NCBI GenBank assembly: GCA_050174575.1
Contig: JBFXJT010000007.1
Coordinates: forward strand, 6,648-70,647
From: Bacilli bacterium
Lineage (GTDB): Bacteria > Bacillota_I > Bacilli_A > ML615J-28 > CAG-698
Reading direction: 5' to 3'
DNA length: 64,000 bases
Part shown: positions 3,409 through 44,334 of the stretch, one piece after another
How the letters are laid out: each line of letters opens with the position of its first letter
Numbering within the stretch: the first letter of the stretch is position 1
Position numbers and translations under genes: made by a program
Notes under the pieces: generated by a model
The model's database searches: none
Seen by the model: the letters and a program-made list of their open reading frames with translations, nothing else
What the model was told of the DNA's origin: nothing

Positions 3409-3591
3409 ATTTCTTCTTCTTTCCTTTGATAATCTAATTATACATAAACTTTTAATTTAAATAAATGATTTCTTTTATGTAATGATGAATCTTGCTTTGT
3501 TTGACTATATTTCGTCTATAATTTGGTCTGTAATCGCTTTTGGATAATCATCTAATAAGAATAAGTAAAATTAAATAAGTTATCTTAAAAG

Positions 3592-3621
3592 AAAAAACGA
3601 ATCAACAGCATTGATTCGTTT
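3592..3621 (-). terminator. intrinsic terminator after the GH13 gene
   Basis: Minus strand reads AAACGAATCAA-TGCTG-TTGATTCGTTT followed by TTTTC. The 11-bp stem touches the stop codon. Confidence 0.7.
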
Positions 3622-7885: not shown

Positions 7886-7911
7886 ACTAAACTCCTTTGG
7901 AAAAAGTATCC

Positions 7912-16015: not shown

Positions 16016-16016
16016 A

Positions 16017-26072: not shown

Positions 26073-28757
26073 ATGAGGCAATCAATAAAACTTATTTTTA
26101 TCCTTAATTTGTTTTTTATCCTTGCTTTGGGAGCAATCTATCCAAACCCTTCTTCGAAAAATTACGAAATCAATTCATCTAATAATCTCCACCTTTTAAT
26201 GGAAATTGATGAAAATGAGGCAAATGAAATTGCAAAAACATATAATCTAGATTTTCTTGATTATTCAAATTATGGTTATGCTACTTTCGTTGCCCAAGAT
26301 GATGAACAATATAAATCATTACTAAATGATACCGATCTATCCTTTATTCCTAATAACCTGTCTATTACTGATGCTAGACCACCAATAAATCAGGAAGACT
26401 TAACAAAATTATATGCTTTATCCTTAATTGATACCTATGATGCTTGGCAATTGACAATGGGAAGCAGTAGTGTTTTAGTGGCTATCATCGATACTGGAAT
26501 AGATATTTATCATAGTGAATTTACAGGGAAGATTTCTTCACTATCTTACAATTCGAAAACAAAGACAGTCGGTTTAACACAAGTCATTGATGATCAAGGT
26601 CATGGAACAATGGTAGCTGGTGTAATCGCCGCAACAAAAGGCAATAACATTGGGATTGCTGGTGTTGCACCTTCCTCTTCATTATTGGTTATCAAAGCAA
26701 ATGAGCCAAACGAAGGATCTTTTCTTGATAGTTCCGTCATTGAAGGTATTTATTATGCTGCTGACCATGGTGCTGATGTCATTAACATGAGTTTAGGAAG
26801 TCCTTATGCCAACCCATTAACAAAGACAGCATTAGAATATGCACGAAGTAAAGGCGCACTCATTGTTGCTGCTGCTGGTAATGATAGTGTTAGTACCCCT
26901 TACTATCCTGCAAGTTTTGACACAACAATTTCTGTATCTGCTGTTGATCAAACACAATTATTAGCCACGTATTCAAATTTCGGTTCAAATATTAGTGTTG
27001 CCGCTCCTGGAACAAACATTTATACAACAGTTAAAGGAAATACCTACGGCTATGGGTCCGGTACTTCTTTGGCTGCCCCACAAGTATCGGGTGTTTTAGC
27101 TTTAATGCTTGCATATTTAAATATGTCCGATGAGGAAATTTTGTCAAGAATTTTACTAACAGCAACTGATTTGGGAAATTTAGGCAAAGATGATTCATAT
27201 GGTTATGGACTTGTTAATAGTTATGATGCCTTAGTTCATCCTTTAGTTACCGTTTCGTTTGAAACTTTCGGTGGAACAGTTCTAGAGCCAATTCAAGTAG
27301 CGGCTAATCGTCCATTTATATGCACTCAAATTCCTGAAAAAGAATTATCCATTTTCGAAGGATGGTACAAGGATAGTTTATTGATGACACCTTGGGTTAT
27401 GGGAACAAGTGTAACCAGCACAAATATTACTTTGTATGCGAAATATACTAAAAGTTCATATTTAGTGTCTTTTGTAACATCTGGTTCTTATGTAGAAGAT
27501 ATGATTGTCGCAGCAAATGGTTCTTTTACCCTTCCAACTACATCCCTTGATCAATATCAATTTATTGGATGGTTTTTAGACAGTCAATATTTAGAACCAT
27601 ATGTTTCTGGACCAGTTACCGCAGATTTGACGCTGTATGCAAAATTTGAAAAACTTGATACTTATTATAATATTTTCTTTGTAACACAGGGATCGGCGAT
27701 TGATCCGATTCAAGTAAAAGAAGGCGAATCTGTTTCACCACCACCTTCCTTGTTAACTGGTTATACTTTTCATGGATGGTATTTAGACAGTAATTATTCC
27801 ATTCCCTATCAAAATGAACCTGTTACTTCATCGATGACACTGTATGCTTTGTTTGATATCAATGATTATGATATTTCCTATTTTATTGATAACGAACTTT
27901 ATGATACCATCACTTTGCCGTATAATAGTGAAATTCCTAATCTTGAACCTGCCAAAGAAGGATATACTTTTAGTGGTTGGTATTTAGATGATAGTTTCAC
28001 AACCCCACTTGATGATGGTGGTTTAGAAAACAATCTGTCCTTATTTGGTTTTTTCACAATCCAAACATTTGAAGTAATTTACTTAGTAGATGATACAATC
28101 ATCAGTCAACAAACCGTCAATTATGGGGAAAATGCTACTCCGCCTTCATCTTATACAAAACCAGATTCAATAAGCTTTTTCTATGAATTTATCGGTTGGA
28201 GTGAAGAAGCATTAAACGTTACCTCTAATTTAACAATAATAGCAATATTTAATAAAACATTCAAACCAACAAGCATTGCTTTACAACCGGGAATTGATAC
28301 AATCTATCAAAATGAAGAATGGATTGATGCCGGGTTAATCATTTCTAATTCAAATATTACTTATACAACTCAAAGTCAAGTCGATACTCATTTTATTGGT
28401 CGTTACCTTGTTTTATACTTTATATATGAAGAAGCAAATTTGGTGTACGAAAAAACAAGAGTGGTATCTGTTATAGAAAAACCACCTGTTGTCCAAATAA
28501 CTCTTAATGATGATGTAACAACAATTTTTGAAGGAAATGAATACCTAGATGCCGGAGCAAATACAAATGTTGGAACAATTACAACAAAAGGAACCGTAGA
28601 TTACAATCAGGAAGGCACTTATGTAATTGTTTATGAAGTTGTTGTCCAAAATATTACCTATCAAAAACATAAATATGTCTATGTTGTGAAAGAAGTTGAA
28701 CCAACTTCAACCGTAGCTTTTATTGTAAACGATAAAAAAAGGTGGTATGAAGTATGA
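26073..28757 (+). CDS. secreted subtilisin-like (S8) serine protease with C-terminal repeat and Ig-like domains
   Basis: 894 aa with a signal peptide. Catalytic triad motifs VAIIDTGID, HGTMVAGVIAA and GTSLAAPQVSG. Five approx 70-aa repeats with (F/Y)xGW(Y/F)xD, of the Listeria-Bacteroides/InlB-B type. Two DUF5011-like Ig modules (GIDTIYQNEEWIDAG, TIFEGNEYLDAG). Confidence 0.85.
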   Translation: MRQSIKLIFILNLFFILALGAIYPNPSSKNYEINSSNNLHLLMEIDENEANEIAKTYNLDFLDYSNYGYATFVAQDDEQYKSLLNDTDLSFIPNNLSITDARPPINQEDLTKLYALSLIDTYDAWQLTMGSSSVLVAIIDTGIDIYHSEFTGKISSLSYNSKTKTVGLTQVIDDQGHGTMVAGVIAATKGNNIGIAGVAPSSSLLVIKANEPNEGSFLDSSVIEGIYYAADHGADVINMSLGSPYANPLTKTALEYARSKGALIVAAAGNDSVSTPYYPASFDTTISVSAVDQTQLLATYSNFGSNISVAAPGTNIYTTVKGNTYGYGSGTSLAAPQVSGVLALMLAYLNMSDEEILSRILLTATDLGNLGKDDSYGYGLVNSYDALVHPLVTVSFETFGGTVLEPIQVAANRPFICTQIPEKELSIFEGWYKDSLLMTPWVMGTSVTSTNITLYAKYTKSSYLVSFVTSGSYVEDMIVAANGSFTLPTTSLDQYQFIGWFLDSQYLEPYVSGPVTADLTLYAKFEKLDTYYNIFFVTQGSAIDPIQVKEGESVSPPPSLLTGYTFHGWYLDSNYSIPYQNEPVTSSMTLYALFDINDYDISYFIDNELYDTITLPYNSEIPNLEPAKEGYTFSGWYLDDSFTTPLDDGGLENNLSLFGFFTIQTFEVIYLVDDTIISQQTVNYGENATPPSSYTKPDSISFFYEFIGWSEEALNVTSNLTIIAIFNKTFKPTSIALQPGIDTIYQNEEWIDAGLIISNSNITYTTQSQVDTHFIGRYLVLYFIYEEANLVYEKTRVVSVIEKPPVVQITLNDDVTTIFEGNEYLDAGANTNVGTITTKGTVDYNQEGTYVIVYEVVVQNITYQKHKYVYVVKEVEPTSTVAFIVNDKKRWYEV

Positions 28758-29284
28758 AAAAAATAATATTATTCCTCCTTTTTGTTAGTTTACTTGCTAT
28801 CGTTGGTTGTACAATTGGTGAAAACACAACTGTTAAAATGTCTTTAAAGTCTGGTATCGATACAGTTGAAATTAATAGCGAATATGTTGATCCAGGTGTC
28901 AAAGCAACTTTTGGTTTATTGAGCCTTGATGTCAAGGTCGTTTCTTCAACCGTCAACACCCAAATGCTCGGGGCTTATGAAATTGTTTATGAAGCTAGTT
29001 ATAACGGTATTTTTAAAACAATTACACGAATAGTGACTGTAATTGATGATACTGCCCCTATTATTTACTTAAATCCTGGTGTTGACACTATTTTAATCGG
29101 TGAAAATTGGGTTGACGCTGGTGTTACGATAACCGACAATAGCAATGTTGTGATTGACCCCATCATAACTGGAGAAATTAACAATCAAGTTGTTGGTGAT
29201 TATGAAATTGTTTATCAAGCAAAAGACTCAAGCAACAATATTAATCAAATTATCCGTATAGTTCATGTTATTGATAACGAATAA
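28754..29284 (+). CDS. lipoprotein with two DUF5011-like Ig domains
   Basis: 176 aa. Lipobox LLAIVGC. Modules SGIDTVEINSEYVDPGV and PGVDTILIGENWVDAGV. The ATG overlaps the protease stop (ATGA). Confidence 0.6.
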   Translation: MKKIILFLLFVSLLAIVGCTIGENTTVKMSLKSGIDTVEINSEYVDPGVKATFGLLSLDVKVVSSTVNTQMLGAYEIVYEASYNGIFKTITRIVTVIDDTAPIIYLNPGVDTILIGENWVDAGVTITDNSNVVIDPIITGEINNQVVGDYEIVYQAKDSSNNINQIIRIVHVIDNE

Positions 29285-29309: not shown

Positions 29310-30230
29310 TCACATTAAATTATTTATTTCATCTAAGGTAGGAAGGGCATCAATTGCCCCTTTTTTTGTTGTCACTAACGCGCCTGAAATATTACCAAAC
29401 CGTAAAATTTGTACAATTTGCTCATCAGTTAAATCATCAATATCTAATTTGTCTAAATTGACTAAAACACCAGCATAGAAAGCGTCTCCTGCACCCGTTG
29501 TATCAATTGGTTTTACAATAATTGATGGTACTTTGAGCAAGCGCCCATGGTGAAAAAAAACAGAGCCATCTTTTCCCAAAGTCAAAAAGACTATTTGGTT
29601 TTTTGTTGTGAGTTTCATCAATCCTTTTTCTAAATCTGTTTCACCAGTAAATAAAATTAATTCGTCTTGAGATATTTTTAAATAATCTGCCTTTTTTGCG
29701 TAATATGTATAAATGTTAATTGCTGTTTGCGCATCAACGAATAAATCATCGCGATAGTTAACATCAAAACTTAATGATTTATGGCTTTTTTTCACAAGTT
29801 TAATAATGTGATTTGCAAGTTCTCTTCCTTTTGGTTCGCTTAACAGTAATGAACCAAGATGAACAATATCAGCTTGTTTGATGGCTTCTAAGCTGGTTTT
29901 GGGGATATGAAAATCCGCTTGGTTTTTGTGATAAAAACTAAAGTGGCGTTCGCCATCATCGTCATTCGCAACAAATGCTAAAGTAGTATTGTGAAATGGA
30001 TCTTCCGTAATTAATGTTTTAGAAAAAGGAATTTTAGATGCAAAATCAATTAAAAATTGACCCATCAAATCAACTCCGACATTTCCAACGAACTGAACAT
30101 TTCCTCCATACTTAGCAATGCCACAAGCAACATTAAAAGGAGCTCCACCCGCAAATGTTTGATAAGACATCGTGTTATTAACTTTTTGACCTATTAAATC
30201 AACAAGGATTTCGCCAATACAGACTATCAT
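29310..30230 (-). CDS. fructokinase (PfkB/ribokinase family)
   Basis: Start moved to ATG 30230 (MIVCIGEILVDLIG), 6 nt after AAGGAG. The track start is a GTG overlapping lacI. Motifs GGAPFNVA and DTTGAGDAF. Confidence 0.8.
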   Translation of the reverse strand: MIVCIGEILVDLIGQKVNNTMSYQTFAGGAPFNVACGIAKYGGNVQFVGNVGVDLMGQFLIDFASKIPFSKTLITEDPFHNTTLAFVANDDDGERHFSFYHKNQADFHIPKTSLEAIKQADIVHLGSLLLSEPKGRELANHIIKLVKKSHKSLSFDVNYRDDLFVDAQTAINIYTYYAKKADYLKISQDELILFTGETDLEKGLMKLTTKNQIVFLTLGKDGSVFFHHGRLLKVPSIIVKPIDTTGAGDAFYAGVLVNLDKLDIDDLTDEQIVQILRFGNISGALVTTKKGAIDALPTLDEINNLM

Positions 30231-30240
30231 TTGTTTCTCC

Positions 30241-31203
30241 TTAAGTTGTTTCACCTAAAATTAAATTAGTTGGAACAAAAATGAATTCTTCCGATGTTTC
30301 ATGATTAATTCGTAATATCAGTTGATTAACAATGGCAACGGCAAGAGCTTCAATATCTTGTTTGACAACAGTAAATTTAGGATGTTGTAAAATCTCATCC
30401 ATGACTCCATCAAATGCAATGATTTTGATTTCTTCAGGAACTTTTTTTCCAAGTTGAGTAGCTATCTGAAAGCAAGTATTGGCAAAGGTATCACTTTGGG
30501 CAAAAATTCCGTCCAATGTTGGGTTCTCTTGCATAAATTGTTTTGCAACAACAAATTCTTCACCATGATATACATTCTTATAACAAGAAGTCGGAACCAT
30601 ATTATATTTTTGCATTACATCCAAATAAGCAAAGTAACGTTTTTGTGTTTCTGAAGGAGCAGTGGACATACCACCAATATAGCCAATGTGATGACACCCT
30701 TTTTGGACAAGATGCTCAATGGCTTTAAAAGTACTTTCATAATTATCACTTGTAACACAAGGAACGTTGTCGAGATGACGATCCAAAGTCACTATGTTTA
30801 GCCCTTTGAAATCAACATCCTGATATAAGTGATTGGTGATGAAAATAATCCCGTCGACTTGTCCTGTCTTAATCATATTCAATAAATGAACTTCTTTATC
30901 TCTTTTTCCTTGAGAACTGACAATAATCATTTTGAAACCTTTTTTATACAAGTAATCCTCAATGTAAAAAGCAATTTTACTAAAGAAAACGTGACTAATG
31001 GTTGGAACAAATAGGGCAACTAATCCAGATCTTTGTGCCTGTAGATTTCGCCCTAATTGATTAGGAATGTAATTGAGTGCTTTAATTGCATCTTCTATTT
31101 TTTTTCGCGATTCTTCAGATACATAACCGTTTTTATTAATGTATCGCGAAACAGTTCCCATGCCAACCCCAGCTCGTTTTGCAACTTCTTTCATTTGGGC
31201 CAA
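30241..31203 (-). CDS. LacI family transcriptional regulator
   Basis: 320 aa. N-terminal HTH MKEVAKRAGVGMGTVSRYIN followed by a periplasmic-binding-protein-like sugar domain. TTG start lies 8 nt after AGGAGG. Confidence 0.9.
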   Translation of the reverse strand: MAQMKEVAKRAGVGMGTVSRYINKNGYVSEESRKKIEDAIKALNYIPNQLGRNLQAQRSGLVALFVPTISHVFFSKIAFYIEDYLYKKGFKMIIVSSQGKRDKEVHLLNMIKTGQVDGIIFITNHLYQDVDFKGLNIVTLDRHLDNVPCVTSDNYESTFKAIEHLVQKGCHHIGYIGGMSTAPSETQKRYFAYLDVMQKYNMVPTSCYKNVYHGEEFVVAKQFMQENPTLDGIFAQSDTFANTCFQIATQLGKKVPEEIKIIAFDGVMDEILQHPKFTVVKQDIEALAVAIVNQLILRINHETSEEFIFVPTNLILGETT

Positions 31204-31237
31204 GGTAGTCGCCTCCTAACATGTTTTCATAAACTAT

Positions 31238-31246
31238 ATTATATCA
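31238..31246 (-). promoter_or_regulatory. extended -10 element upstream of the lacI-family gene
   Basis: The minus strand reads TGATATAAT. No good -35 is seen. Confidence 0.4.
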
Positions 31247-31290
31247 CTACGTACTACTATTTTTTAACCGTTTTTCGAAATATTGTAATG

Positions 31291-31339
31291 AAAGTAGTTC
31301 TTTCATGGATGATTAACATCATTTTGAAAGAACTACTTT
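31291..31339 (-). terminator. long hairpin after the 4-module lipoprotein gene (possible attenuating terminator)
   Basis: Perfect 15-bp stem AAAGTAGTTCTTTCA/TGAAAGAACTACTTT with a 19-nt loop. There is no clear T-run downstream, so efficiency is uncertain. Confidence 0.4.
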
Positions 31340-31353
31340 ATTATTAAACAACC

Positions 31354-34098
31354 TTATCCCATTTGATTAGTAATTGTTTGCCATGGAATATTGTGTGTTC
31401 GTTCGACAGTCCATTGATCGCTCGTATCTTTACTGTAAAGAGTTACGGTATCAAAGCCATTAGCAATATCTGGAGTAACTGCATAGTATGTTACAACTTC
31501 ATCAAAGAAGGCAACAGCCCAACCAGCTACTTCAATATCACAAAGTTCCAAATACAATTCCTGGCCTAAGTAAGCACTTAAATCAATAAAATATGTCCCC
31601 ATATCTGCCCATGATCCACCTAAATCTACACTTGGGAAATTGGTATCGCTAAAACGATTTTGTTTATATAAACCAATTTGTGTCCCGTCAGCTAAATAAA
31701 CTTTTACAGCTGCAGCATTAGCACCCATTTTTAAAGAAATAAAGCCTGTTCCGTGAAGAGTAAAATTGGTTGAGCGTAATGAATATTGCTCGCTTTCCGC
31801 AACACCTGAAGTCCATCCGTCAAAGTGATAATCACCGCTTTGGTTATATGGTAATTTTTCATTCCAATAATGTGTTTGACTTATAACAGCATTAACTGTA
31901 ACTTTTTCAGAAGTCCAACCAGTCATATCACCAGTTTCAAAACCTCCATTGATAATTAAACCATTATTGCCCATTTCCCATTCGATATTAACATCTGGTT
32001 CTTGGACACTGTCTTTTGTAGAACCAGCAACAGTATCAAAGCCATTTGCAACATCAGGAACAGTTGTATGATAGAAATTAATATCATCAAAGAAAGAAAC
32101 TGCCCAACCAGCTGTAGCTGGATCATCAATCAATTCAACATAAACTTTTTCGCCTAAATAAGCCGATAAGTCCGCAAAGTAACGTGTCATGGTCGCTAAA
32201 CGTCCACCATTAGCAAGGTATGGGAAATCAAAATCTTTGAAACGATAATTTGTGAAATAACCGATGACTGTTCCATCTTCTTTTACAACACGAACAGCGG
32301 CAGCTTTTCCACCCATCATGAAGGAAACCCAACCAGTACCAGATAATGTAAATAATCCAGAGCGTAAAGTATAACCAGCTGATTCCACGCTTGTTGCTGT
32401 CCAACCATCAAAATGGTAATTTCCTTGTTGGTTATAAGCAATCATTTCGCCCCAGAAAGTTTCTGCGCTTAAGGCACCATTAATTATATCGCCAAAAACA
32501 ACACTCCAACCAGTCATATCACCTGTTTCAAATCCACCGTTTGCGACATTGGTATCGGCAGAAACGACAACATTGAATGTGCTCGTAACTGTTTCGCTTT
32601 CATAAGTTGTCCCATAATGAACAACATATGTTCCTTCTTGATCAAAATCAAAAGCATCAAATCCTGTTGTAAACTCTGTTTCGCCTAAAACAACTTTTGT
32701 AATGACAGCTGGTACAGCCGTTTCGCCATAAGTTATCACGACATCAGCCATTAATGCTGTCAAGTTGTAATCATTTACCATCGCCGTTACAAAACCTTCT
32801 GCTTCAGTTTCAATCATTAAGGCAGGTAATTCAAATGGATAATCATAATTTGTATAGTATTCTTGTAAATGAGCTAGCGAATTATATGAATCGGTGTATG
32901 TTTCTGCCATAATTGCTTGGAAAGTAGATTTCATTAAAGCTTTTACTTCAACTTCCGTCATACTAACACGGAAATCATCAGCATTGATGAAAGCAAATCC
33001 GCTACTTGGATTGTTGTCCACAATCGAGATGTACAACACATCGCCAAGGTATTCGGATGCATCAACATAAACGCGACGTAATGTCAATGGTAATCCTGGA
33101 TCGTTAAATGTTGTATTAGTGACTTGGATTAATTCTGCATCTGTTGTTCCGTCATTAATAGAAATATAACAATTTGTTGGCCCAGAACCAATCATAAAGG
33201 AAATCCAACCATCACCGGCTAATGTGAATTTTGTAGAACGGATTGCTCCAACTGCTGATTCGGCAGTAGCTGCATTGTTATTTCCGTCTAAATAATAATC
33301 ACCTTCACCATAAACCATACGATCAGTCCAATAAAATTGTGATGTTGGAACGACAACTGTTCCACCAAATGCTGTACCGCTTAATTGTTTCCAACCAGTT
33401 AAATCACCTGTTTCAAACCCACCATTTGTAATCGTTGTTGATGTTGGGTCTTCTTCAAATTCTGGTTCTCCATAAGCTTCAATTTGGGCATCACGTTCTG
33501 CTTGCATAGCTGTAACTTCTGCTTCAGTCAAACAAACTACAAAATCATCTAAATTGACATAGCCATAATCATCGGTGTTATCACTGTCAGTTACTCTGAT
33601 ATAAATGATTTTATTCAAATGTGCTGATAAATCAACAACTCTTCTGATCATTTGATCAGTAATAAATGGTTCATCATAATCAGTATTCGTTATTTTTAAC
33701 AAAGCCGTGGCATTGTCTTTTTCAAAGAACTCAACAAAAATCTTATCTTGATTTTTTGCAGCTCCCATTTTAAAAGCAATTTTACCAGTTCCAGTTAATT
33801 TAAAGAAAGAAGATGTTAGTGTACCAACCATTTGTTGAGTACCACCATCCGTTCCACTGAACCAAAATTCTCCTGTTTTATCTACAGTAATTCCATTTAC
33901 TTTTAGATCATTAACGATACCGCGAGGACTAAAAGCCGTTTCTGTTTTTGTCCATCCCGTCCAAACTTCTGCTGTTCCAACTTCAAATCCACCGTTTGTA
34001 ATTTGGGTTGGATACTCTTCTTCTTTACCACATGCTGCTAACAATAATAAAGAGAGTGCTAGCATAAATACAAAGGTAAAACGCCATGTTTTTTTCAT
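31354..34098 (-). CDS. non-catalytic surface lipoprotein with four beta-sandwich carbohydrate-binding-like modules
   Basis: 914 aa. Lipobox LLLAAC-GK. Modules start with NGGFE(V/T)G at aa 33-190, 223-380, 518-690 and 715-886. Modules 1-2 resemble the N-terminal module of the adjacent GH32 (...IRVTDSDNTDDYGYVNLDDF vs IKIIDNDNNTDNYNYINVDDF). Modules 3-4 form a second subtype. An Ig-like spacer lies at aa 425-513. Confidence 0.6.
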   Translation of the reverse strand: MKKTWRFTFVFMLALSLLLLAACGKEEEYPTQITNGGFEVGTAEVWTGWTKTETAFSPRGIVNDLKVNGITVDKTGEFWFSGTDGGTQQMVGTLTSSFFKLTGTGKIAFKMGAAKNQDKIFVEFFEKDNATALLKITNTDYDEPFITDQMIRRVVDLSAHLNKIIYIRVTDSDNTDDYGYVNLDDFVVCLTEAEVTAMQAERDAQIEAYGEPEFEEDPTSTTITNGGFETGDLTGWKQLSGTAFGGTVVVPTSQFYWTDRMVYGEGDYYLDGNNNAATAESAVGAIRSTKFTLAGDGWISFMIGSGPTNCYISINDGTTDAELIQVTNTTFNDPGLPLTLRRVYVDASEYLGDVLYISIVDNNPSSGFAFINADDFRVSMTEVEVKALMKSTFQAIMAETYTDSYNSLAHLQEYYTNYDYPFELPALMIETEAEGFVTAMVNDYNLTALMADVVITYGETAVPAVITKVVLGETEFTTGFDAFDFDQEGTYVVHYGTTYESETVTSTFNVVVSADTNVANGGFETGDMTGWSVVFGDIINGALSAETFWGEMIAYNQQGNYHFDGWTATSVESAGYTLRSGLFTLSGTGWVSFMMGGKAAAVRVVKEDGTVIGYFTNYRFKDFDFPYLANGGRLATMTRYFADLSAYLGEKVYVELIDDPATAGWAVSFFDDINFYHTTVPDVANGFDTVAGSTKDSVQEPDVNIEWEMGNNGLIINGGFETGDMTGWTSEKVTVNAVISQTHYWNEKLPYNQSGDYHFDGWTSGVAESEQYSLRSTNFTLHGTGFISLKMGANAAAVKVYLADGTQIGLYKQNRFSDTNFPSVDLGGSWADMGTYFIDLSAYLGQELYLELCDIEVAGWAVAFFDEVVTYYAVTPDIANGFDTVTLYSKDTSDQWTVERTHNIPWQTITNQMG

Positions 34099-34115
34099 TT
34101 TTTTCTCCTTTTCCT

Positions 34116-36164
34116 CTATTTTACAATAATGTCATATTTGCTTATTTGCTTTAATATAGAACTTCCCCCAACAGTGAAAAATTCAATACCAGTGTCATTT
34201 AAGCCTGGGTAAACATTTCCAGTCATCGTAATATAACCATCATTAATAAAGACTTCAACACTGGAAACGTCTAAAAAGATTCGTAATTTTAAAATCCCAT
34301 TATTTAAGGAAACGTCAGCACTCCTAGTTTGACGGTTGATTTCCGCACCACTGATTGTTTCACCTGAATTTCCTCGATCAAAGATAACTGTTTGTGAAAG
34401 AGCATCATAATAAACTAATGTTTCGTTTTCTGTTCCTTTAAACAGTTTCACCCCAACTTTAGATGCAGATCCAACTTCAATTTCAAGTTCCAGTTCAACC
34501 GTCTTACCAGAAATTTGTGGGAGGACTAAGTTTCCATTAATCGTTTTATTTTGATAACTGACTTCATTTTGACGATAATTTTCGATTTCTCTAACTGGGG
34601 CTTGATAAATATGGCCATCTTTATAGGTCAATTCTCTTGGCAAGGTATAAGCACCAACCCAGTTATGCGCTTGTGTGACTAAAGTACGATCCCACATTTG
34701 CATCCATGCTAGCATAATTGTTCGTCCATCAGGCGTTATCATCGTTTGAGCAGCATAGAAATCAAATCCACCGTCAAATTCTTGAAATTCATCATAATTG
34801 AATTTCCCCGTTTGATAATCAATTCCACCAACCATATAAACTACCGAGTGAATATTTTCAAATTTCGTCTTGTCTCTTGGTAAATTTTGTGGACTAACAA
34901 TTAAAATCTCTTGATTATTTAACTCAATAAAATCTGGGCATTCATAAACACCATTTAACTGTAAGAAATTTGGTGCTTGAGGATTGTTATTGTTCATGAC
35001 TTTGCCAACATAATCCCAACTAGTTAAATTGCTCGAACGATAAAGGACAACCATGCCATAGCCATTTGCTTTCGTACCGATCAAACAATAATAATATCCA
35101 TCATGATAAAACACTTTTGGATCACGAAAATCAGCTGTTGATACACCGATTGGTACCTCAATTGTAGAAATAACTGGATTACGGGTTAATTTTTCAAAAT
35201 TAATCCCATCTTCGGACACTGCTAGATTTTGTGTTTGTTGATTATTGGCTACGCCAGTATACATGAGGTATAATTTCCCATCTTTTTCAATAGCCGTCCC
35301 ACTAAAGCACCCAAAATCTTGATCATATTTTTGATCGGGAGCTAAAGCTACAGGCTGTAATTCCCACTTAACAAAATCCTTCGTTGTTTGATGCCCCCAA
35401 TGCATTGGGCCCCAACTGCTGGCATAAGGGTTAAATTGGTGAAACAAATGACCTTCACCATTAAACCAAATTAATCCGTTGGGATCATTACTCCATCCTA
35501 TTGGAGATGCAGCATGATAAGTATGACGGTAAGTTGGGTTTACAGTATTAAGATTTTCAAGAACATATTGATATGCATCGTGTACTTTTCCCACTTGATC
35601 TTCAACTCCTTGATAATTAACGATAAAATCGTCAACATTGATGTAATTATAGTTATCGGTATTATTATCATTATCAATAATTTTTATTTGAACTGTTTTT
35701 CCAATATGACTACTTCCATCCAATATGACCCGATGGAGAGTATTTGGACTGCTTTCATCAAAATTTAAATTAGCGCGTGTTGCTAATTCATTCCCTCTTG
35801 AGTCAATTAAAGAAACATAACATAAGTCGACATTTGCTCCACCGCTAATCAAAAATCCGATTTTTCCATTCCCTTTTAATTGAAATTTTTCACTTAACAT
35901 AAAACCGGTTTTACTTAAGCCTGCTTTTTTACCATAAAAGAGAAATTCTCCCGTTTGGTTAAAGCGATTGCCATTTTCATCTTTGTCATTAAGAACAACA
36001 CCAGCATCAGTAAAAGCATCACCGTCTTCTTCCCAGTTTTTTAAGGTACCACTTTCAAAACTAGCGTTTAAAAAGGAATATTCGCCATCCACAGTTTGAT
36101 TACATCCTCCTAATATCATGATGAAAGAAAGAAGGATAGCAATCAAAAGCCATTTATTCTTCAT
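34116..36164 (-). CDS. GH32 beta-fructofuranosidase/exo-fructanase lipoprotein with N-terminal binding module
   Basis: 682 aa. Lipobox MILGGC-NQ. Canonical GH32 motifs WSNDPNG (35475-35495), FRDPKVF and YECPDF. Confidence 0.9.
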   Translation of the reverse strand: MKNKWLLIAILLSFIMILGGCNQTVDGEYSFLNASFESGTLKNWEEDGDAFTDAGVVLNDKDENGNRFNQTGEFLFYGKKAGLSKTGFMLSEKFQLKGNGKIGFLISGGANVDLCYVSLIDSRGNELATRANLNFDESSPNTLHRVILDGSSHIGKTVQIKIIDNDNNTDNYNYINVDDFIVNYQGVEDQVGKVHDAYQYVLENLNTVNPTYRHTYHAASPIGWSNDPNGLIWFNGEGHLFHQFNPYASSWGPMHWGHQTTKDFVKWELQPVALAPDQKYDQDFGCFSGTAIEKDGKLYLMYTGVANNQQTQNLAVSEDGINFEKLTRNPVISTIEVPIGVSTADFRDPKVFYHDGYYYCLIGTKANGYGMVVLYRSSNLTSWDYVGKVMNNNNPQAPNFLQLNGVYECPDFIELNNQEILIVSPQNLPRDKTKFENIHSVVYMVGGIDYQTGKFNYDEFQEFDGGFDFYAAQTMITPDGRTIMLAWMQMWDRTLVTQAHNWVGAYTLPRELTYKDGHIYQAPVREIENYRQNEVSYQNKTINGNLVLPQISGKTVELELEIEVGSASKVGVKLFKGTENETLVYYDALSQTVIFDRGNSGETISGAEINRQTRSADVSLNNGILKLRIFLDVSSVEVFINDGYITMTGNVYPGLNDTGIEFFTVGGSSILKQISKYDIIVK

Positions 36165-38544
36165 CCAGTGTTACCTCTTCATAAATTGATTTCATTGTTT
36201 TGACAGTCATTTGGTTTATGTTGACTTCACCATTTTCTGAAAACAAGAGTAACCCTAAAGATGAAGGATCGGGATAAATACGGGCAGAAATAGCTTTTTC
36301 ATTGTTGAAAAAAGCTTCAATTAAAGAACGGTCGAGGTAAATATCCATGACTAAAATATTATTATCTAAAACAAATGAGCCATAGAAATTTCCTGAAATG
36401 TTTTGGTTATCGCTTAATGCACCACTTAAACCTGTTTTTACTCCTAAGGTTTTTAATGTCTCATTAAAATAAAGCGTTGTTTCTTCTAACGTAGTGGCGT
36501 TCTTGCGAACTTTTATTCCAAACAAAGTAGCATTAATGTTTTCAAATTCTACGTGAATATAAAGCATGTCACCCTTTACATCAGTTAATAGGGTGTTGGC
36601 TTCACTGATGGACTTATTGCTCATTGTGACTAATGTCTCTTGGTAATAGTCTTCTAGTGCGGATACTGGGCGAATCATTAAATCCGTTCCGTCACTGTTT
36701 AAATAAACTTCTCTAGCCAGTCCAACACAGTTTGCCCACCCAGATAAATAGACATCCGATGGTTTCCTTTGATCCTGCATGATACTGAAAAGATAAGTTT
36801 TTTGGGAAACTGGATCAATAAAACCTGAAGGGCCAGTAAAAACATTATTACCATAATCAAGTAGTCTTGGAGTCGTCCCAAAAGCAGGATCGGGAATAAA
36901 ACGACCAGCAGTTTTATCGAAAGTACCAAGCCAATAATAAATATCATTATCGGCACTGTCAGCAGGAGCAGGACTAATAATCAACATATATTTTGTAATT
37001 GTTTTACTTTCGTTTGTTACGGGAAGCATAATCGGAAGTTCCCAAACAGGCCCTAAATCGGCAGGTTGATTGACTTGTTCGTACAATTGCCCTTTGTAGG
37101 TCCAATTATTAAACGAGTCATCCTTTGTTGTATAAAGTAAAGCTGTCCCACCAGTATTGATTTTGGTACTTGATGATCCAATTAGTAAAAACCAAGTATC
37201 TTCTTCTTGCCAAACATGGGCATCACGAAATTGTCCCGATGCTCCTTGACCAGCTACTTGTTTAATAGCTAATTCATCATCGATTACCCATTCTGTTAAG
37301 TAGGGATCGGTTGGATCTTTGGGCCTAGCAATACCAATGTTTTGATTGCTTATCAAACCATCTTTTTGATAAGAGTCATTTCCAGCAGTAAATAGTAAGA
37401 CGGGAATGCCTTCATTATCATAAGTTACACCACCGCTCCATACACCATCCGGACAAACGGAATCAGCTGTTGGGGTGATAACTTCTTTTAATGGACGCCA
37501 ATTAACCATATCATCACTGATTAAATGCCCCCATCCAATATTGCGAAAATAAGGGCCAAACATATTGAATTGGAAAAATAAGTGATAATACCCATTGTAA
37601 TACATTGGAGCATGAGGTTCATTCATCCAGTGTTGATAAGGACCACCATGATATTGTGTTTTATAAAAATCATCTGTCAGAATATTTTGTAACCAAATAT
37701 CCTCAAAAGCAATTTCCGGAACTGTCTTACTTTCGTAAACTTGCTTTACATCATTTGCTTGTAAACTGGCTTCATAGACTTTTAACTCATCAATCAATCC
37801 ACTTACCATATTTAAAGTTGCCGTAGCATTCGAACCTGGATAACTATTACGAGCAATGAGGAAGGGTTCGCCCGACGCTCCCATAATGGTTGCCCCTTCG
37901 AAAAAATAATCAATGTTGACTAATTCGCCATTTAAATATATGGCCATTTCGCCTTGATCACCATCGAAGGTTGCCACAATATGATTCCATTCATATTTTT
38001 TAAGGGGATTACCTTCATCCCATAAAGTTAACCATCGGTCACCAAGACCTACTTGAAAGCTCCAAGAACCATGGCGTTGATAGCCAAGAATAAATCCTTG
38101 GTTTTCACTTTTATTGTGTTGAGAAACAATCGCTGTTAATTTATCAGTTCCATTGTCTTTGGCATTGGGATCGTCCCACTCAAAGGCCCTTGGAGCAATC
38201 CAAACACTAATTGATAATTTTGAACCGCGAATTTTTAAATCTTCTTCTTGATAACGGATAAAATTAGAATATCCATCAAACAATAAGGAGCCATTATTGA
38301 TCCCTGTTGCGCGCCACTGTGGATCCTCAGGATTTTCCATAAAGCTAGGGTTTGTGAAAACATAAGCAACAGTCGCTGGAGCTTCGTTTTTCGAAGCATC
38401 ATTCACTTTGTTGCCCTGACCTTCATCAAAAGTTAAATGTAACAATAAATCTTTTGTATAAGGGTCGCTCTTTCCACATGCATATAAACTTGAAACAATG
38501 AATAATAGGAAAAAAATAGTCAATAGTTTTTTTGTTATCATCAT
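36154..38544 (-). CDS. LamG-domain + divergent GH32-like lipoprotein (WMNEPH variant)
   Basis: 796 aa. Lipobox SSLYAC-GK. N-terminal concanavalin/LamG-like domain (LFDGYSNFIRY...LSISVWIAPRAFEW...IYLNGELV). GH32 propeller with HWMNEPH (37612-37629), FRDAHVW and VWELP. Confidence 0.8.
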   Translation of the reverse strand: MMITKKLLTIFFLLFIVSSLYACGKSDPYTKDLLLHLTFDEGQGNKVNDASKNEAPATVAYVFTNPSFMENPEDPQWRATGINNGSLLFDGYSNFIRYQEEDLKIRGSKLSISVWIAPRAFEWDDPNAKDNGTDKLTAIVSQHNKSENQGFILGYQRHGSWSFQVGLGDRWLTLWDEGNPLKKYEWNHIVATFDGDQGEMAIYLNGELVNIDYFFEGATIMGASGEPFLIARNSYPGSNATATLNMVSGLIDELKVYEASLQANDVKQVYESKTVPEIAFEDIWLQNILTDDFYKTQYHGGPYQHWMNEPHAPMYYNGYYHLFFQFNMFGPYFRNIGWGHLISDDMVNWRPLKEVITPTADSVCPDGVWSGGVTYDNEGIPVLLFTAGNDSYQKDGLISNQNIGIARPKDPTDPYLTEWVIDDELAIKQVAGQGASGQFRDAHVWQEEDTWFLLIGSSSTKINTGGTALLYTTKDDSFNNWTYKGQLYEQVNQPADLGPVWELPIMLPVTNESKTITKYMLIISPAPADSADNDIYYWLGTFDKTAGRFIPDPAFGTTPRLLDYGNNVFTGPSGFIDPVSQKTYLFSIMQDQRKPSDVYLSGWANCVGLAREVYLNSDGTDLMIRPVSALEDYYQETLVTMSNKSISEANTLLTDVKGDMLYIHVEFENINATLFGIKVRKNATTLEETTLYFNETLKTLGVKTGLSGALSDNQNISGNFYGSFVLDNNILVMDIYLDRSLIEAFFNNEKAISARIYPDPSSLGLLLFSENGEVNINQMTVKTMKSIYEEVTLDEE

Positions 38545-38555
38545 CTTTTTCCCTC

Positions 38556-40904
38556 CTAGATTGTTTTCATTTTAATTACTTGCAAAACATCAACCATAAT
38601 TTGACCATCAGCAAATAACGACATTTCCGATGCATTGTTATAAACCATCGCCGTCAATGTTTGATACCCATTGATGTATATTTCAATCATTGCTCCATCA
38701 ATAAATATTTCTAAATCTAATACTTCCCCAGGAAGAAGAGAAATTCCTCCCCCAAAGATTCCTTTCACAACACTATTTCCAGAATTAGTTGTATCAATTG
38801 AAATAAATTGATCGATTGCGTTATAATTTAGGACTGTCTTTCTCCCTAGTTGATCTTCTTTTAAAGTAAGTCCAAAATTTTGAGAATTTTCATTAGTTAA
38901 TTGAACATGCAAGTATAACTGATTGCCGACCACTGATGCTAAAGCTTGGTTTGCAAATTCAATATTAGTATCTTTTTTATCAACAATGACATCAGTTTTT
39001 AAATTATTTAATTCGTTTAAAGGGGTAATTTTTAAACTGCCGGCATCATCAAGTGACAATTGACGAGGAATACCAGCAGTATGGGCCCATCCTGCATCAT
39101 AATCTTGATGACCATTTCGTTGGCCTTGAATAATGCTACAAATTAAAACACGTCCTGTTAGGGGATCCGTCGAAACCGTTGGCCCCGTAAACACATTGTT
39201 CCCAAAATCCATTAATTTTGGATCTTCATGTTCAGGAATAAAAGTCATCGTTGTTTTATCGAAGTCCCCCAAATAATAGTAAATATCATTATCCGCACCA
39301 GAACCCGCGGGAGAAAACGCAAATATATACTTAGAAACTGTTTTATTAGCGTTCGTTATTTTCGCAAGATTTACTAATTCCCATGTCGTACCCATATAAT
39401 TATGATAAACAGAAGGCATGAACAGTTCGCCTTGATAATCCCAATTCAAAAAAGAATCGTCTTGAGTTGTAAATACTTGGGCAGTTCCTTTATTATCATA
39501 ACGAGCAGATCCGACAAACATGTAGTAAGTTCCATCTTCAAAATAAATATTTGGATCACGAAATTCGTTTGTTTTGGCCATTGATGGTGTTGAGACGGCT
39601 ACTAATTGATCGCTTACATCCCACTCCGTTAAATCAGGATCGCTTAAATCTTTCGGTATTGCAATGGCGATATTTTGATTGCTCCATTGCCCAAAGCTTT
39701 TGGCATCATCACCGGCTGTAAAAAATAATACGGGTGTTCCATCAGCTTTGTATGACGCTCCTCCCGACCAAATACCATCAGGACAAACAGAATTTTTCAT
39801 AAGAATAATGGCTTCTTTCACATTGCGCCAATTGACCATATCAGGACTTACCCAATGACCCCATGCAATTTGCCGCCAGTATGGCCCAGTAAGATTAAAT
39901 TGATAAAACAAATGGTAATTTCCATTGAAATAAAACAAAGCATGTGGTTCATTCATCCAATGTTGAGGTGGTGAAGCATGATATTGAGGTTTGTATATAT
40001 CATCATCTAGCAATTCGTCATTAAGCCAAGCATCTTTAAAATCAATGGCTTTCATGCGGTTTTTTTGTACAAAACTGTTGTGATAGGCTATTATATCCTC
40101 TTCTTTAATTGATGCTTGGTAAATTTTAAGTTCGTCCATTAAACCATTGAACATATTAATTTCATAAAGGCCTGTTTTTTGGGGAACCTGGCTTTTTCCG
40201 ATATACAAAGATGTATTCGCAGCAATAATCTCGCCAAATACATCATTGTGAAAATTAATTATTTCCCCGTTTTTGTATATCCCCATAAATCCGTTTGTTC
40301 CATCAAAAACAAAGGTAAGATGATTCCAAGTATAACGGTCAAGATCATTCCACTCATTCCAAAGTTTAACCCAGCGATCGCCAAGTCCTATTTGAAAGGA
40401 ATATTCACCATATTTATGCATGCCGATAACAAAACCTTGATTTTCTGACATGATGTATTGCCCTAAAACAACTTGCAAATGCTCCGTTCCGTTAACAACT
40501 GCTCCTGGAACATCCCATTCAAACATCCTTGGGCTAATGAATAAATCAATAGTTAAGTTAGGACCGCTAATTTGAATATCCTGATAATCATATTTTATAT
40601 AATTCGAATAACCATCAAAGGCTAAACATGCACCACTAATTGCTGAATTTGTAATCCAAGTTGGATCAATCGATTGCTTGTATTCAGCATCCGTGAAGAC
40701 ATATTCAATCGTGGCTTTTGTCATTGTTGTTTGTTCAGTAAGTTCGTTACCTTCATTTTCATCAAAAGAAGTTGCAAATATTAATTTATCTTGATAAGGG
40801 TCATGATAATCGTGATAATAAATTGCATCCTCCTCTGTTTTTGCACAACCAATAAAGGCCATCATTAAACAAAAAACTGTGATAATTAATAAACCTTTTT
40901 TCAA
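38556..40904 (-). CDS. LamG-domain + divergent GH32-like lipoprotein (WMNEPH variant), paralog of the downstream gene
   Basis: 782 aa with a TTG start after GGAAGTGG. Lipobox AFIGC-AK. Same architecture as the paralog, with HWMNEPH (39942-39959), FRDPNIY and TWELV. Confidence 0.8.
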   Translation of the reverse strand: MKKGLLIITVFCLMMAFIGCAKTEEDAIYYHDYHDPYQDKLIFATSFDENEGNELTEQTTMTKATIEYVFTDAEYKQSIDPTWITNSAISGACLAFDGYSNYIKYDYQDIQISGPNLTIDLFISPRMFEWDVPGAVVNGTEHLQVVLGQYIMSENQGFVIGMHKYGEYSFQIGLGDRWVKLWNEWNDLDRYTWNHLTFVFDGTNGFMGIYKNGEIINFHNDVFGEIIAANTSLYIGKSQVPQKTGLYEINMFNGLMDELKIYQASIKEEDIIAYHNSFVQKNRMKAIDFKDAWLNDELLDDDIYKPQYHASPPQHWMNEPHALFYFNGNYHLFYQFNLTGPYWRQIAWGHWVSPDMVNWRNVKEAIILMKNSVCPDGIWSGGASYKADGTPVLFFTAGDDAKSFGQWSNQNIAIAIPKDLSDPDLTEWDVSDQLVAVSTPSMAKTNEFRDPNIYFEDGTYYMFVGSARYDNKGTAQVFTTQDDSFLNWDYQGELFMPSVYHNYMGTTWELVNLAKITNANKTVSKYIFAFSPAGSGADNDIYYYLGDFDKTTMTFIPEHEDPKLMDFGNNVFTGPTVSTDPLTGRVLICSIIQGQRNGHQDYDAGWAHTAGIPRQLSLDDAGSLKITPLNELNNLKTDVIVDKKDTNIEFANQALASVVGNQLYLHVQLTNENSQNFGLTLKEDQLGRKTVLNYNAIDQFISIDTTNSGNSVVKGIFGGGISLLPGEVLDLEIFIDGAMIEIYINGYQTLTAMVYNNASEMSLFADGQIMVDVLQVIKMKTI

Positions 40905-40916
40905 ATTACCACTTCC

Positions 40917-41843
40917 TTACTTCAATCCAGTAAAAGCGACACCTTCAATAATATATCTTTGAGCAAAAATATAAACTAAGGCGATCGGAATCGTACTAAA
41001 TGTTAAGGATGCCATAACTAAAGAAATATCTTTCGGATTAAAATTATTAATCAACTGTAAAAATACTTGCAAAGGTTGTTGCACTGGATTAGAGAACATT
41101 AATTGTGCAAACACATATTCGTTCCAACTTCCCATAAATGTAAAAATAGCGACTGTTGCAAATACTGGCAATGATAGAGGAACAATAACCTTAAAGAAGG
41201 TTGTTAATTTACTAGCACCATCAACATAAGCTGCTTCTTCTAATTCTTTAGGAATTCCCAAGAAAAAAGCCCGAAACATGAAGATATAAAAGGGACTAAC
41301 AATACCTGGTAATAAATAACCAATGACTCTCAATTCTGCTGTCAATAATCCCAAATTTTTTAAAATAACATACAAAGGAACAATAGAAGTCTCAACAGGA
41401 ACAATTAATATTAAAATAATGATACTAACGATGGTTTTATGACCAGGAAAAACAAAACGAGACAACGCATAACCGGCAAGTGAGTTAACTAATAAAACAC
41501 CTGTAATCGAAATTGTTGCATAAATGACACTGTTAAGAATGGATCTTCCAAAATTATCAAAAGTTGCAAATAAATTTTGATAAGATAAAAACCATTTGCT
41601 GATATTCCAAGTAGCTGGTAAAAAGGTTTTTATGGAATTGATGGAGGCATACACTTCTGCTTGAGTTTTAAAACTATTCGAAAGCATCCATACTACAGGA
41701 AATAAAAAGATAATGCATAGCACGATTAAAAAAATTCTAAATAATGTTTTCGCAATTATTTCACGAACTGAGTAATGTCTTTTTTGTTTTTTAGGCAATT
41801 GTAGTATTGATAATGGAATGTTTTTTCGCTTCTTTTTCATCAT
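40917..41843 (-). CDS. carbohydrate ABC transporter permease (MalG-like)
   Basis: Six TM helices and an EAA-type loop (ELEEAAYVDGASKLTTFFKVIVP). Start placed at MMKKKRKN (41843 or 41840) after GAGGTG, rather than the track start that overlaps the upstream gene. Confidence 0.9.
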   Translation of the reverse strand: MMKKKRKNIPLSILQLPKKQKRHYSVREIIAKTLFRIFLIVLCIIFLFPVVWMLSNSFKTQAEVYASINSIKTFLPATWNISKWFLSYQNLFATFDNFGRSILNSVIYATISITGVLLVNSLAGYALSRFVFPGHKTIVSIIILILIVPVETSIVPLYVILKNLGLLTAELRVIGYLLPGIVSPFYIFMFRAFFLGIPKELEEAAYVDGASKLTTFFKVIVPLSLPVFATVAIFTFMGSWNEYVFAQLMFSNPVQQPLQVFLQLINNFNPKDISLVMASLTFSTIPIALVYIFAQRYIIEGVAFTGLK

Positions 41844-41850
41844 TATCACC

Positions 41851-42783
41851 TCAAATTGTGTTATCTTTCTCAAAGACTTTTCTTAAGGTTAAAGCAATCG
41901 TAGCCATAAAGATGGTATAAATTAAAGCGATGGCACTTGAATAACCAACATCCCGGAAATTAATACCTTGCAAATAAATATAATAAGACATCGTTAAGGT
42001 CCGGTCAATCGGACCTCCTCTTGTCATAATCATTGGTTGGGTAATCAACCTAAATGCCCCAATCATCATTGTAATCAGCACAAATGAGAATGTAGGCTTG
42101 ATGCTAGGAAGGGTAATCCGCCAGAATTGTTGGAATTTATTCGCTCCATCGATGCTTGATGCTTCATACAGCTCTTTTGGAATATTTTTTAGTGCTGACA
42201 AGAAAATTAACATTTGGTAACCTGCTCCCTGCCAAGCAGAAATCATGACAATTAAATCCATGGCTTGTTCGGGATCGCTTAAGAAAAGTTGTCTCGATAA
42301 ACCAATAGTTTCAAGGAGGGCATTTATCAATCCATCTTGCTCATTCAATAAGTTAATCCATAACATCGATGTGACCGCCAATGACAACATTGTTGGCACA
42401 AAGAATGCCCATCTAAAAAAGGTATTTCCCTTCATTGGCTTATTTAAAATCAAGGCTAACAAAAGAGCTGCACCAAGTTGTAACGGAATAACTTTTAAAA
42501 CAAATTCCATTGTGTTTTTAAATGCTTGAAGAAGAATTTTATCTTGAAAGGCATTTTTAAAGTTTGCAAAACCAATAAAAGTTGTATTATTTAACTCTAA
42601 TAAATTGGCATCTGTAAACGAATAGGCTAGAGAAATAACAATGGGCATAATGACAAATATAATTCCTAAAATAACAGCAGGAAGCAAAAAACTCCAACCT
42701 ATAATCGTATCAGAAGTTCGGTATGTTTTCCCAAATAATTTAAAATACATTCGGGTATTTGGTTTTTTTACAGATCCTACCAT
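41851..42783 (-). CDS. carbohydrate ABC transporter permease (MalF-like)
   Basis: 310 aa. EAA loop ELYEASSIDGANKFQQFWRITLP. Confidence 0.9.
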   Translation of the reverse strand: MVGSVKKPNTRMYFKLFGKTYRTSDTIIGWSFLLPAVILGIIFVIMPIVISLAYSFTDANLLELNNTTFIGFANFKNAFQDKILLQAFKNTMEFVLKVIPLQLGAALLLALILNKPMKGNTFFRWAFFVPTMLSLAVTSMLWINLLNEQDGLINALLETIGLSRQLFLSDPEQAMDLIVMISAWQGAGYQMLIFLSALKNIPKELYEASSIDGANKFQQFWRITLPSIKPTFSFVLITMMIGAFRLITQPMIMTRGGPIDRTLTMSYYIYLQGINFRDVGYSSAIALIYTIFMATIALTLRKVFEKDNTI

Positions 42784-42793
42784 TTTTCACCTC

Positions 42794-44305: not shown

Positions 44306-44334
44306 ATTTTAAACCACCCCGTTTTTTTTGTCAA
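44306..44334 (-). promoter_or_regulatory. near-consensus sigma-A promoter of the fructan locus
   Basis: On the minus strand: TTGACA (44329-44334), 17 nt, TAAAAT (44306-44311). Confidence 0.7.

Follow-up and report, generated by a model that had tools for sequence, protein, structure and literature searches.

A putative fructan-capture lipoprotein with four CBM38-type modules in a GH32 operon of an uncultured Bacilli bacterium

No prebiotics are used more widely than inulin-type fructans. To our knowledge, the capture of fructans by Gram-positive gut bacteria prior to hydrolysis is poorly described; the levan system of Bacteroides is well studied, and BT1761 is said to be the surface glycan-binding protein (SGBP) of the levan utilisome in Bacteroides thetaiotaomicron. 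In the case of CBM66 of Bacillus subtilis SacC, a carbohydrate-binding module (CBM) with a Laminin_G_3 or concanavalin-like fold binds the terminal fructose of levan. A second fructan-directed family, CBM38, is defined on residues 32-389 of the cycloinulo-oligosaccharide fructanotransferase (CFTase) CFC1 of Paenibacillus macerans (AAG47946.1), which form two β-sandwiches (PMC10076258), and this region has been reported to bind inulin/levan with low micromolar affinity (Lee et al. 2004, via PMC10076258). Here, we analyse a stretch of 64,000 nucleotides from the metagenome-assembled genome (MAG) of an uncultured Bacilli bacterium, which we call the window, and focus on a minus-strand gene (31354..34098) for a non-catalytic, 914-residue lipoprotein composed of four repeated modules that are homologous to those of CFTases. 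We consider it probable, on the basis of its sequence, that this protein is a surface fructan-capture lipoprotein of four CBM38 modules, which serves the neighbouring enzymes of glycoside hydrolase family 32 (GH32).

An initial annotation of the gene had described four β-sandwich modules, each initiated by an NGGFE motif, and this description is borne out by the motifs (residues 35, 225, 520 and 717), by the profile envelopes (residues 29-201, 219-392, 514-697 and 711-892), by the E-values of the repeats and by an AlphaFold2 model. The nucleotide ranges originally assigned to the modules translate to residues 33-190, 223-380, 518-690 and 715-886 and are consistent with these envelopes. On the minus strand, the CBM38-like β-sandwiches are encoded in the following order: module 1 (M1, residues 29-201) at 33496..34014, M2 (219-392) at 32923..33444, M3 (514-709), which carries extra C-terminal strands and corresponds to the type of the N-terminal CFTase repeat, at 31972..32559, and M4 (710-914), a duplicate of the module-3 type, at 31357..31971. 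The homology among the four modules is well beyond chance: pairwise sequence comparison yields 29% identity between M1 and M2 (E 2e-23), 35% between M2 and M3 (E 5e-28) and 52% between M3 and M4 (E 3e-63). A further module of this kind constitutes the N-terminus of the adjacent lipoprotein GH32 (residues 26-195; 35580..36089, minus strand) and matches M1 at 34% identity (E 1e-17) and M2 with an E-value of 2e-15. In the alignments we also see the ending that M1, M2 and this N-terminal module have in common (YIRVTDSDNTDDYGYVNLDDF, YISIVDNNPSSGFAFINADDF, QIKIIDNDNNTDNYNYINVDDF) as well as the signatures YHFDGW and AGWAV(S/A)FFD of M3 and M4.

Because the modules are homologous to CFTase repeats and their profile matches, in the P. 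polymyxa CFTase, the counterpart of the defined P. macerans region, we identify them as CBM38, a CAZy membership that we infer from homology. As proxies for the P. macerans CFTase we used two enzymes: P0369 (1333 residues), named P. polymyxa cycloinulo-oligosaccharide fructanotransferase and representing a 90%-identity cluster that holds AAL82574.1/Q8RLU3 (P. polymyxa), and P0330 (BAA24360.1/O52973; 1503 residues), named (Bacillus) Niallia circulans CFTase. All four modules are homologous to the CFTase repeats at 31-46% identity, with E-values from 4e-17 to 4e-41: In BLASTP comparisons with P0369, M3 matches residues 77-245 (46%, E 3.6e-41), M4 follows (37%, E 1.5e-33), M2 matches residues 78-239 (38%, E 7e-25) and M1 matches repeat 1 (31%, E 4e-17), while the N-terminal module of the adjacent GH32 matches the C-terminal repeat at 1169-1327 (37%, E 9e-21); P0330 is likewise matched by all four modules. 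Moreover, the module profile finds residues 76-244 and 261-387 of the 1333-residue P. polymyxa CFTase, which correspond to the CBM38 region of the equally long P. macerans enzyme. The same holds for a GH32 of Defluviitalea raffinosedens, for which dbCAN coordinates have been published as CBM38(44-189)+CBM38(221-367)+CBM38(409-527)+GH32(808-1121)+CBM38(1313-1448) (PMC7355431): On P0140, an enzyme of the same architecture whose homologues at about 61% identity include P0330 and P0369, our profile lies at 39-209, 222-398, 405-556 and 1331-1492 around a GH32 domain at 814-1301, in near coincidence with the published CBM38 positions.

The likeness to the CBM38 modules of CFTases extends to the NGxFE start, the YH(F/L)(D/N)GW motif, the (G/D)W..F.D ending in the module-3 type, the β-sandwich fold with tandem units of about 150-170 residues, and the exclusive company of GH32. 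Unlike in the CFTases, however, the modules described here stand outside any enzyme, with four of them forming a separate lipoprotein that contains an immunoglobulin-like (Ig-like) spacer; M1 and M2 are divergent positional types, and the fructan binding of the window modules is predicted, that of the CFTase region reported. Since the CFTase homologue binds fructan, fructan binding would be expected of each module. This agrees with the initial annotation, which had proposed fructan-binding modules and had named CBM66, CBM38 and CBM4/9 as candidate families: the proposal gains support from the homology to CFTase repeats and from the GH32 company, and among the families CBM38 is the one that stands. 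CBM66 must be rejected, as the Laminin_G_3 profile (PF13385) finds no match in the 914-residue protein, and CBM4/9, which stays below the Pfam threshold, is related in fold only.

Further profile matches of the protein in Pfam and NCBIfam are sub-threshold or spurious. NTTRR-F1 (NF033675) scores 51.7 bits in total over three short segments at module starts, against a curated cut-off of 70, and Flexi_CP_N and EF-hand_8 complete the set. The Flexi_CP_N match (Carlavirus coat; 20.9 bits, residues 20-41, 34098-33976 region) recurs in seven of 58 homologues and in a Paenibacillus enzyme, and in both proteins for which coordinates were printed it lies over or beside a module start; we rejected it as a viral domain and treat it as a spurious match to the short module-start motif. 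Weak CBM_4_9 matches occur in 16 of the 58 homologues (best E 2.9e-5). Searches against PDB with the 914-residue protein, the 58-member family profile and the five-module profile returned no significant sequence match, only the NGGFE motif of 8xmz plus weak matches to CBM22 and 2kpn; in the literature, a search on 8xmz yielded no publication.

The closest solved folds leave room for an alternative, namely that the modules have diverged to another glycan of plant cell-wall or host origin and form a general adhesin that resides in a fructan locus: the ligands of these structures are porphyran, galactan, glucans and xyloglucan, with fructan not among them, and the identity to the CFTase repeats is moderate. 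The modules are distinct from the chain-binding β-jelly-rolls CBM4, CBM16, CBM22, CBM61 and the porphyran-binding CBM 8xmz, to which they show 13-21% identity in a related fold with different ligands. The company they keep argues against another ligand. We searched the profile of the five window modules against 1.84 billion cluster representatives and obtained 1,697 clusters (50% identity) with E <= 1e-3, 702 of them with E <= 1e-10. Of the 150 best representatives, 22 have a GH32 catalytic domain (usually together with Laminin_G_3), 107 consist of modules and short linkers, and 21 contain long unexplained regions, in which we found no other catalytic family or glycoside hydrolase, only Ig-like, Flg_new and FIVAR repeats. 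Within these 150 the module is thus fused to no catalytic family except GH32, and its association with GH32 loci spans Lachnospiraceae, Oscillospiraceae, Christensenellaceae, Bacilli and Paenibacillus, which makes a non-fructan ligand hardly probable at all. The three giant relatives P0125 (3900 residues), P0150 (3220 residues) and P0156 (2319 residues) bear five to ten CBM38-like modules at a spacing of about 260 residues and have long N-terminal regions in addition; Pfam detected no catalytic family in these proteins, and as a group they show Ig-like, Flg_new and FIVAR repeats only.

We modelled the 914-residue protein with AlphaFold2 using a 58-sequence family alignment (mean predicted local distance difference test score 91.8, predicted template-modelling score 0.72). 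In the model, an N-terminal signal helix is followed by two β-sandwiches at about 49-189 and 236-380, linker helices at 382-398 and 407-416, an all-β domain at 427-512, and two further β-sandwiches with extra C-terminal strands at 531-706 and 727-905. The linker (residues 393-513; 32560..32922, minus strand) comprises helix 407-416 and then the all-β domain, while helix 382-398 starts within the M2 envelope. The Ig-like spacer that the initial annotation had placed between the module pairs can be recognised in this predicted all-β domain, with faint signals in sequence: a weak profile match to the Ig-like nuclear magnetic resonance structure 2kpn (E 0.13), an hhalign P of 3e-4 against the PF16403 domain(s) of a neighbouring open reading frame (ORF; 28754-29284), and weak Big_3, PF16403 and InlK_D3 matches scattered over a few homologues. 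The annotated lack of a catalytic domain likewise agrees with our data, as no catalytic family is matched in Pfam or NCBIfam and the model contains no other large domain. We also considered a hidden catalytic domain and rejected it, since the model, once the four sandwiches and the Ig-like domain are accounted for, leaves no room for one.

Two deep clades are separated in a neighbour-joining tree built from 66 modules (no bootstrap, midpoint root). The first contains M3, M4, the extra modules of longer homologues and the N-terminal repeats of CFTases and Paenibacillus enzymes; in the alignment, the YHFDGW ... AGWAV.FFD signature of M3 and M4 corresponds to YHLNGW ... SDWG.IFAD in the CFTases. 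The second clade contains M1 together with the N-terminal module of the adjacent GH32, M2 beside the degenerate second CFTase repeat, which is its nearest type, and the group of C-terminal CFTase repeats. Of the two subtypes proposed by the initial annotation, the division into two clades therefore stands, but M1 and M2 are distinct and positionally conserved, so that three module types (M1, M2 and M3/M4), as judged from the tree, are the better description. That these subtypes would read inulin versus levan is pure speculation. The commonest form of the family, of about 720 residues, is M1-M2-spacer-M3, to which the window protein adds M4; other members reach five modules, and the extra modules of the four- to five-module homologues arose by lineage-specific duplication of the M3 type (P0005 m4/m5, P0013 m3/m4).

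The full-length protein is matched by at least 444 proteins (90%-identity clusters), almost all of which have a signal peptide ending in Cys. Most of the carriers are uncultured members of the Oscillospiraceae, Lachnospiraceae, Christensenellaceae, Clostridia and Bacilli, plus cultured Paenibacillus; gut sources include rabbit, ruminant, chicken, mouse and others, and human-associated carriers occur too. In a survey of 79 species-level loci (one genome per species), 71 have a GH32 domain at a distance of no more than 8 kb, and the remaining eight lie for the most part on short or truncated contigs; a Laminin_G_3 module is found in 72 loci, a related permease in 61, LacI in 48 and PfkB in 40. 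Three homologue loci, one in an ENA metagenome, one in a Lachnospiraceae MAG and one in a further MAG, share this set of genes: a Laminin_G_3-GH32, a second GH32, ATP-binding cassette (ABC) permeases with a binding protein, LacI and PfkB.

The Paenibacillus-type enzymes allow array and enzyme to be compared. GH32s of Paenibacillus, Cohnella and Defluviitalea are built as (CBM38)3-4, Laminin_G_3, GH32 and CBM38, with or without SLH; the 1795-residue enzyme of Paenibacillus jilunlii (L050 7779-13166) carries four tandem modules (73-762), Laminin_G_3 (820-988), GH32 (1028-1509) and a fifth module (1537-1693), and its relatives end in SLH domains. As in the window, tandem modules of the same family are combined with a Laminin_G_3-GH32 unit, for which the window has separate genes in the same operon. 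The Paenibacillus-type enzymes differ in being single polypeptides without an Ig-like spacer, with SLH wall anchors where present and with N-terminal repeats that are all of the module-3 type, whereas in the window binding and catalysis are assigned to different lipoproteins. The fact that binding modules and enzyme form one polypeptide in Paenibacillus and separate lipoproteins of one operon here supports a shared function. We rejected strict gene fission from a Paenibacillus enzyme as the origin of the array, because neither the Ig-like spacer nor the M1 and M2 types occur in that enzyme. The same P. jilunlii fructan locus also encodes an 857-residue kinase-hydrolase fusion (L050 2738-5311) of PfkB (35-342) and a complete GH32 (367-836).

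These architectures also bear on the idea that the 914-residue protein is a protein-protein scaffold, which would group the three GH32 lipoproteins and the solute-binding protein (SBP) of the operon and itself bind little glycan or none. The M1 type is indeed the type of the N-terminal module of the adjacent GH32, adjacency to a Laminin_G_3-GH32 gene is conserved, and such β-sandwich folds are also used in non-glycan settings such as MAM domains and reelin. However, the modules are directly homologous to a module with demonstrated inulin binding, and both the single-polypeptide CFTases and the Paenibacillus enzymes retain them although a scaffold is unneeded there; we regard a pure scaffold as very improbable.

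The assignment as a lipoprotein follows from the N-terminus. The gene was called as an ORF, its product is identical in sequence to GenBank entry MGD9605032.1 ('MAG: hypothetical protein AB7V00_02605 [Bacilli bacterium]'), and a ribosome-binding site, AAGGAG, lies 7 nt 5' of the ATG; just 17 nt lie between the gene and the stop codon of the GH32 gene before it. The protein begins with MKKTWRFTFVFMLALSLLLLAAC, followed by GKEEE, and this signal peptide (residues 1-23; 34030..34098, minus strand; residues 4-21 helical in the AlphaFold2 model) contains the lipobox LLAAC, with L-A-A-C at its end and Cys23 as the predicted lipidated residue. The sequence ...LLLLAAC23 before GKEEE thus agrees with the bacterial-lipoprotein pattern of a signal peptide ending in [LVI][ASTVI][GAS]C, which in its simple form 104 of the 120 listed homologues share; most of the others have a signal ending in Cys or are N-terminally truncated. 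Lipidation and surface exposure are predicted from this lipobox.

In the operon the genes lie on the minus strand. A lipoprotein SBP (42794-44134; N-terminus ...FLVFVGC before GP) is followed by two ABC permeases (41851-42783 and 40917-41873), by two GH32s with Laminin_G_3 of the CBM66-type fold (38556-40904 and 36154-38544; Laminin_G_3 E-values of 6e-18 and 3e-13), by the GH32 with the CBM38-like module (34116-36164), by the CBM38 array itself and then by a LacI-family regulator (30241-31203) and a PfkB-family sugar kinase, a putative fructokinase (29310-30254). Apart from the CBM38-like module, which was recognised by module homology, these neighbours were assigned by Pfam, and the regulator and the kinase accompany homologues of the array elsewhere. 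The appended Laminin_G_3 modules of the two upstream GH32s are reminiscent of CBM66 in SacC, likewise a fructan-directed CBM on a GH32.

SGBP-like surface capture can reasonably be inferred from three features: the lipobox, the absence of a catalytic domain and the setting of the gene in the operon. The lipidated Cys23 would tether the protein to the outer face of the cytoplasmic membrane and display four CBM38-type modules, two on either side of the Ig-like spacer. Each module would be expected to bind β-fructan chains like its CFTase homologue, and four sites on one chain would provide avidity for polymeric inulin or levan, thereby holding the polymer at the surface. The held polymer could then be cut by the three lipoprotein GH32s encoded immediately upstream, one with its own CBM38-like module and two with Laminin_G_3; the products would be imported by the ABC system of the operon, fructose would be phosphorylated by PfkB, and LacI would control all of these genes. 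The same operon invites a different assignment, in which the protein is an accessory receptor for short fructo-oligosaccharides (FOS) that hands enzyme products to the SBP and limits their loss to competitors, and is not a polymer binder. The gene is predicted to be co-transcribed with those for the SBP and the permeases, the closest folds include pocket- and cleft-type CBMs, and the PDB homologues of the three GH32s are exo-acting β-fructosidases, invertases and inulinases, a resemblance by which small products would be abundant at the surface. But the characterised homologue binds polymeric inulin/levan, the modules of CFTases and Paenibacillus enzymes serve polymer-acting enzymes, and multivalency, with five to ten modules in relatives, fits polymer avidity better than a small-sugar hand-over; we therefore judge the receptor for short FOS to be unlikely.

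For polymer capture at the surface, the SGBPs of Bacteroidota are the functional point of reference. Like these, the 914-residue protein is a non-catalytic, multi-domain lipoprotein of the beads-on-a-string kind, located inside a fructan utilisation locus, predicted to be surface-exposed and presumed to capture polymer for surface GH32s. It is unlike them in showing no sequence relationship, in its predicted anchor in the cytoplasmic membrane of a monoderm and not in an outer membrane, and in having an ABC importer as its partner instead of SusC/D; the likeness is an analogy of working and not one of family membership. An adjoining SusC/SusD pair and an outer-membrane anchor, which mark the Bacteroidota proteins, are absent here, where the transporter of the operon is of the ABC type and the source is a Bacilli MAG.

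Several observations weigh against fructan capture by a CBM38 array. The experimentally defined module is that of P. macerans, whose AAG47946.1 was not among the cluster members listed, and our comparison to it runs via the CFTases of P. polymyxa and N. circulans. The identity to the characterised CBM38 module is only 31-46%, and the specificity of CBMs can shift within a family. Pfam CBM_4_9 (PF02018) scores 16.8 bits against a gathering threshold of 25.9 and covers only the NGGFE start of M4, and the database names of the homologues are uniformly 'hypothetical protein', without a Pfam domain. The surface exposure of the protein depends on the cell envelope of the uncultured organism. Finally, a cytoplasmic GH32 and an ABC ATPase are absent from the operon (29310-44134), which leaves the pathway incomplete as read: The energisation of uptake and the intracellular hydrolysis of FOS or sucrose would have to be encoded elsewhere, or the surface enzymes mainly release fructose.

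With respect to anchoring, a hydrophobic N-terminal segment that ends in Cys is shared by the SBP, the three GH32s, the CBM38 array and the product of the small Ig-like ORF (28754-29284, plus strand). In these products we saw neither sortase nor SLH nor other motifs for wall anchoring, and the label Acholeplasmatales is attached to some of the close homologues. This organism may depend on lipid anchors, and its wall may be reduced.

The transcriptional layout of the operon can be sketched from sequence signals. The best promoter-like site, with 11 of 12 consensus matches, lies upstream of the SBP gene (44306..44334, minus strand) and is likely the operon start, as far as a consensus match can tell. 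Two overlaps, of 11 nt between the second Laminin_G_3-type GH32 gene and the CBM38-type GH32 gene (36154-36164) and of 23 nt between the permease genes (41851-41873), suggest translational coupling. Between the array gene and lacI, 15 nt past the stop codon, a strong RNA hairpin (31291..31339, minus strand; -22.9 kcal/mol, z -7.05) is formed by a perfect 15-bp inverted repeat and an inner 5-bp stem without a clear U-tract; it could act as a terminator, stabilise the RNA or, as a regulatory element, part the structural genes from lacI-pfkB. Because this hairpin and a promoter-like site with an extended -10 (31267-31238) precede lacI, lacI and pfkB may form a second transcription unit, and a terminator-like hairpin lies 3' of pfkB (29311-29285).

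Beside the operon, a divergent pair on the plus strand (26073-29284) encodes an 894-residue S8 subtilase with four Flg_new (Listeria-Bacteroides) repeats and an Ig-like tail, and the small ORF mentioned above, a 176-residue lipoprotein with two PF16403 Ig-like domains. Elsewhere in the window, on the minus strand, a second carbohydrate cluster (1126-9375) comprises a GH9 with a CelD_N Ig-like domain, a GH13 α-amylase, a glycogen/maltodextrin phosphorylase and a GH77 4-α-glucanotransferase, and lysine fermentation genes (13732-18259) encode the α and B12-binding subunits of D-lysine 5,6-aminomutase and a lysine 2,3-aminomutase (radical SAM).

CBM38 and non-catalytic CBM proteins are already known, and the array introduces no new principle; what is new is the stand-alone lipoprotein architecture, as we found no description of a spacer-containing CBM38 lipoprotein outside an enzyme in the searchable literature on fructan-, levan- and inulin-binding proteins and CBM38. 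More tentatively, and as a possibility rather than an expectation, stand-alone CBM38 lipoproteins might be the monoderm counterpart of SGBPs: their module types would differ in specificity (inulin or levan, chain ends or internal stretches, short or long chains), duplication of M3 would tune avidity or the reach through the cell wall, and a surface complex with the GH32s and the SBP would amount to a 'utilisome' without an outer membrane. The window modules are good structural targets, being well predicted and belonging to a family that no solved structure matches by sequence. In M3, the binding site would be expected on the concave face, with participation of the conserved residues W549, H562, W566 and W665. 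The CBM38 array may further serve as a marker for predicting the use of polymeric fructans among Firmicutes, and its recognition provides a testable candidate for a surface fructan receptor of gut Firmicutes.

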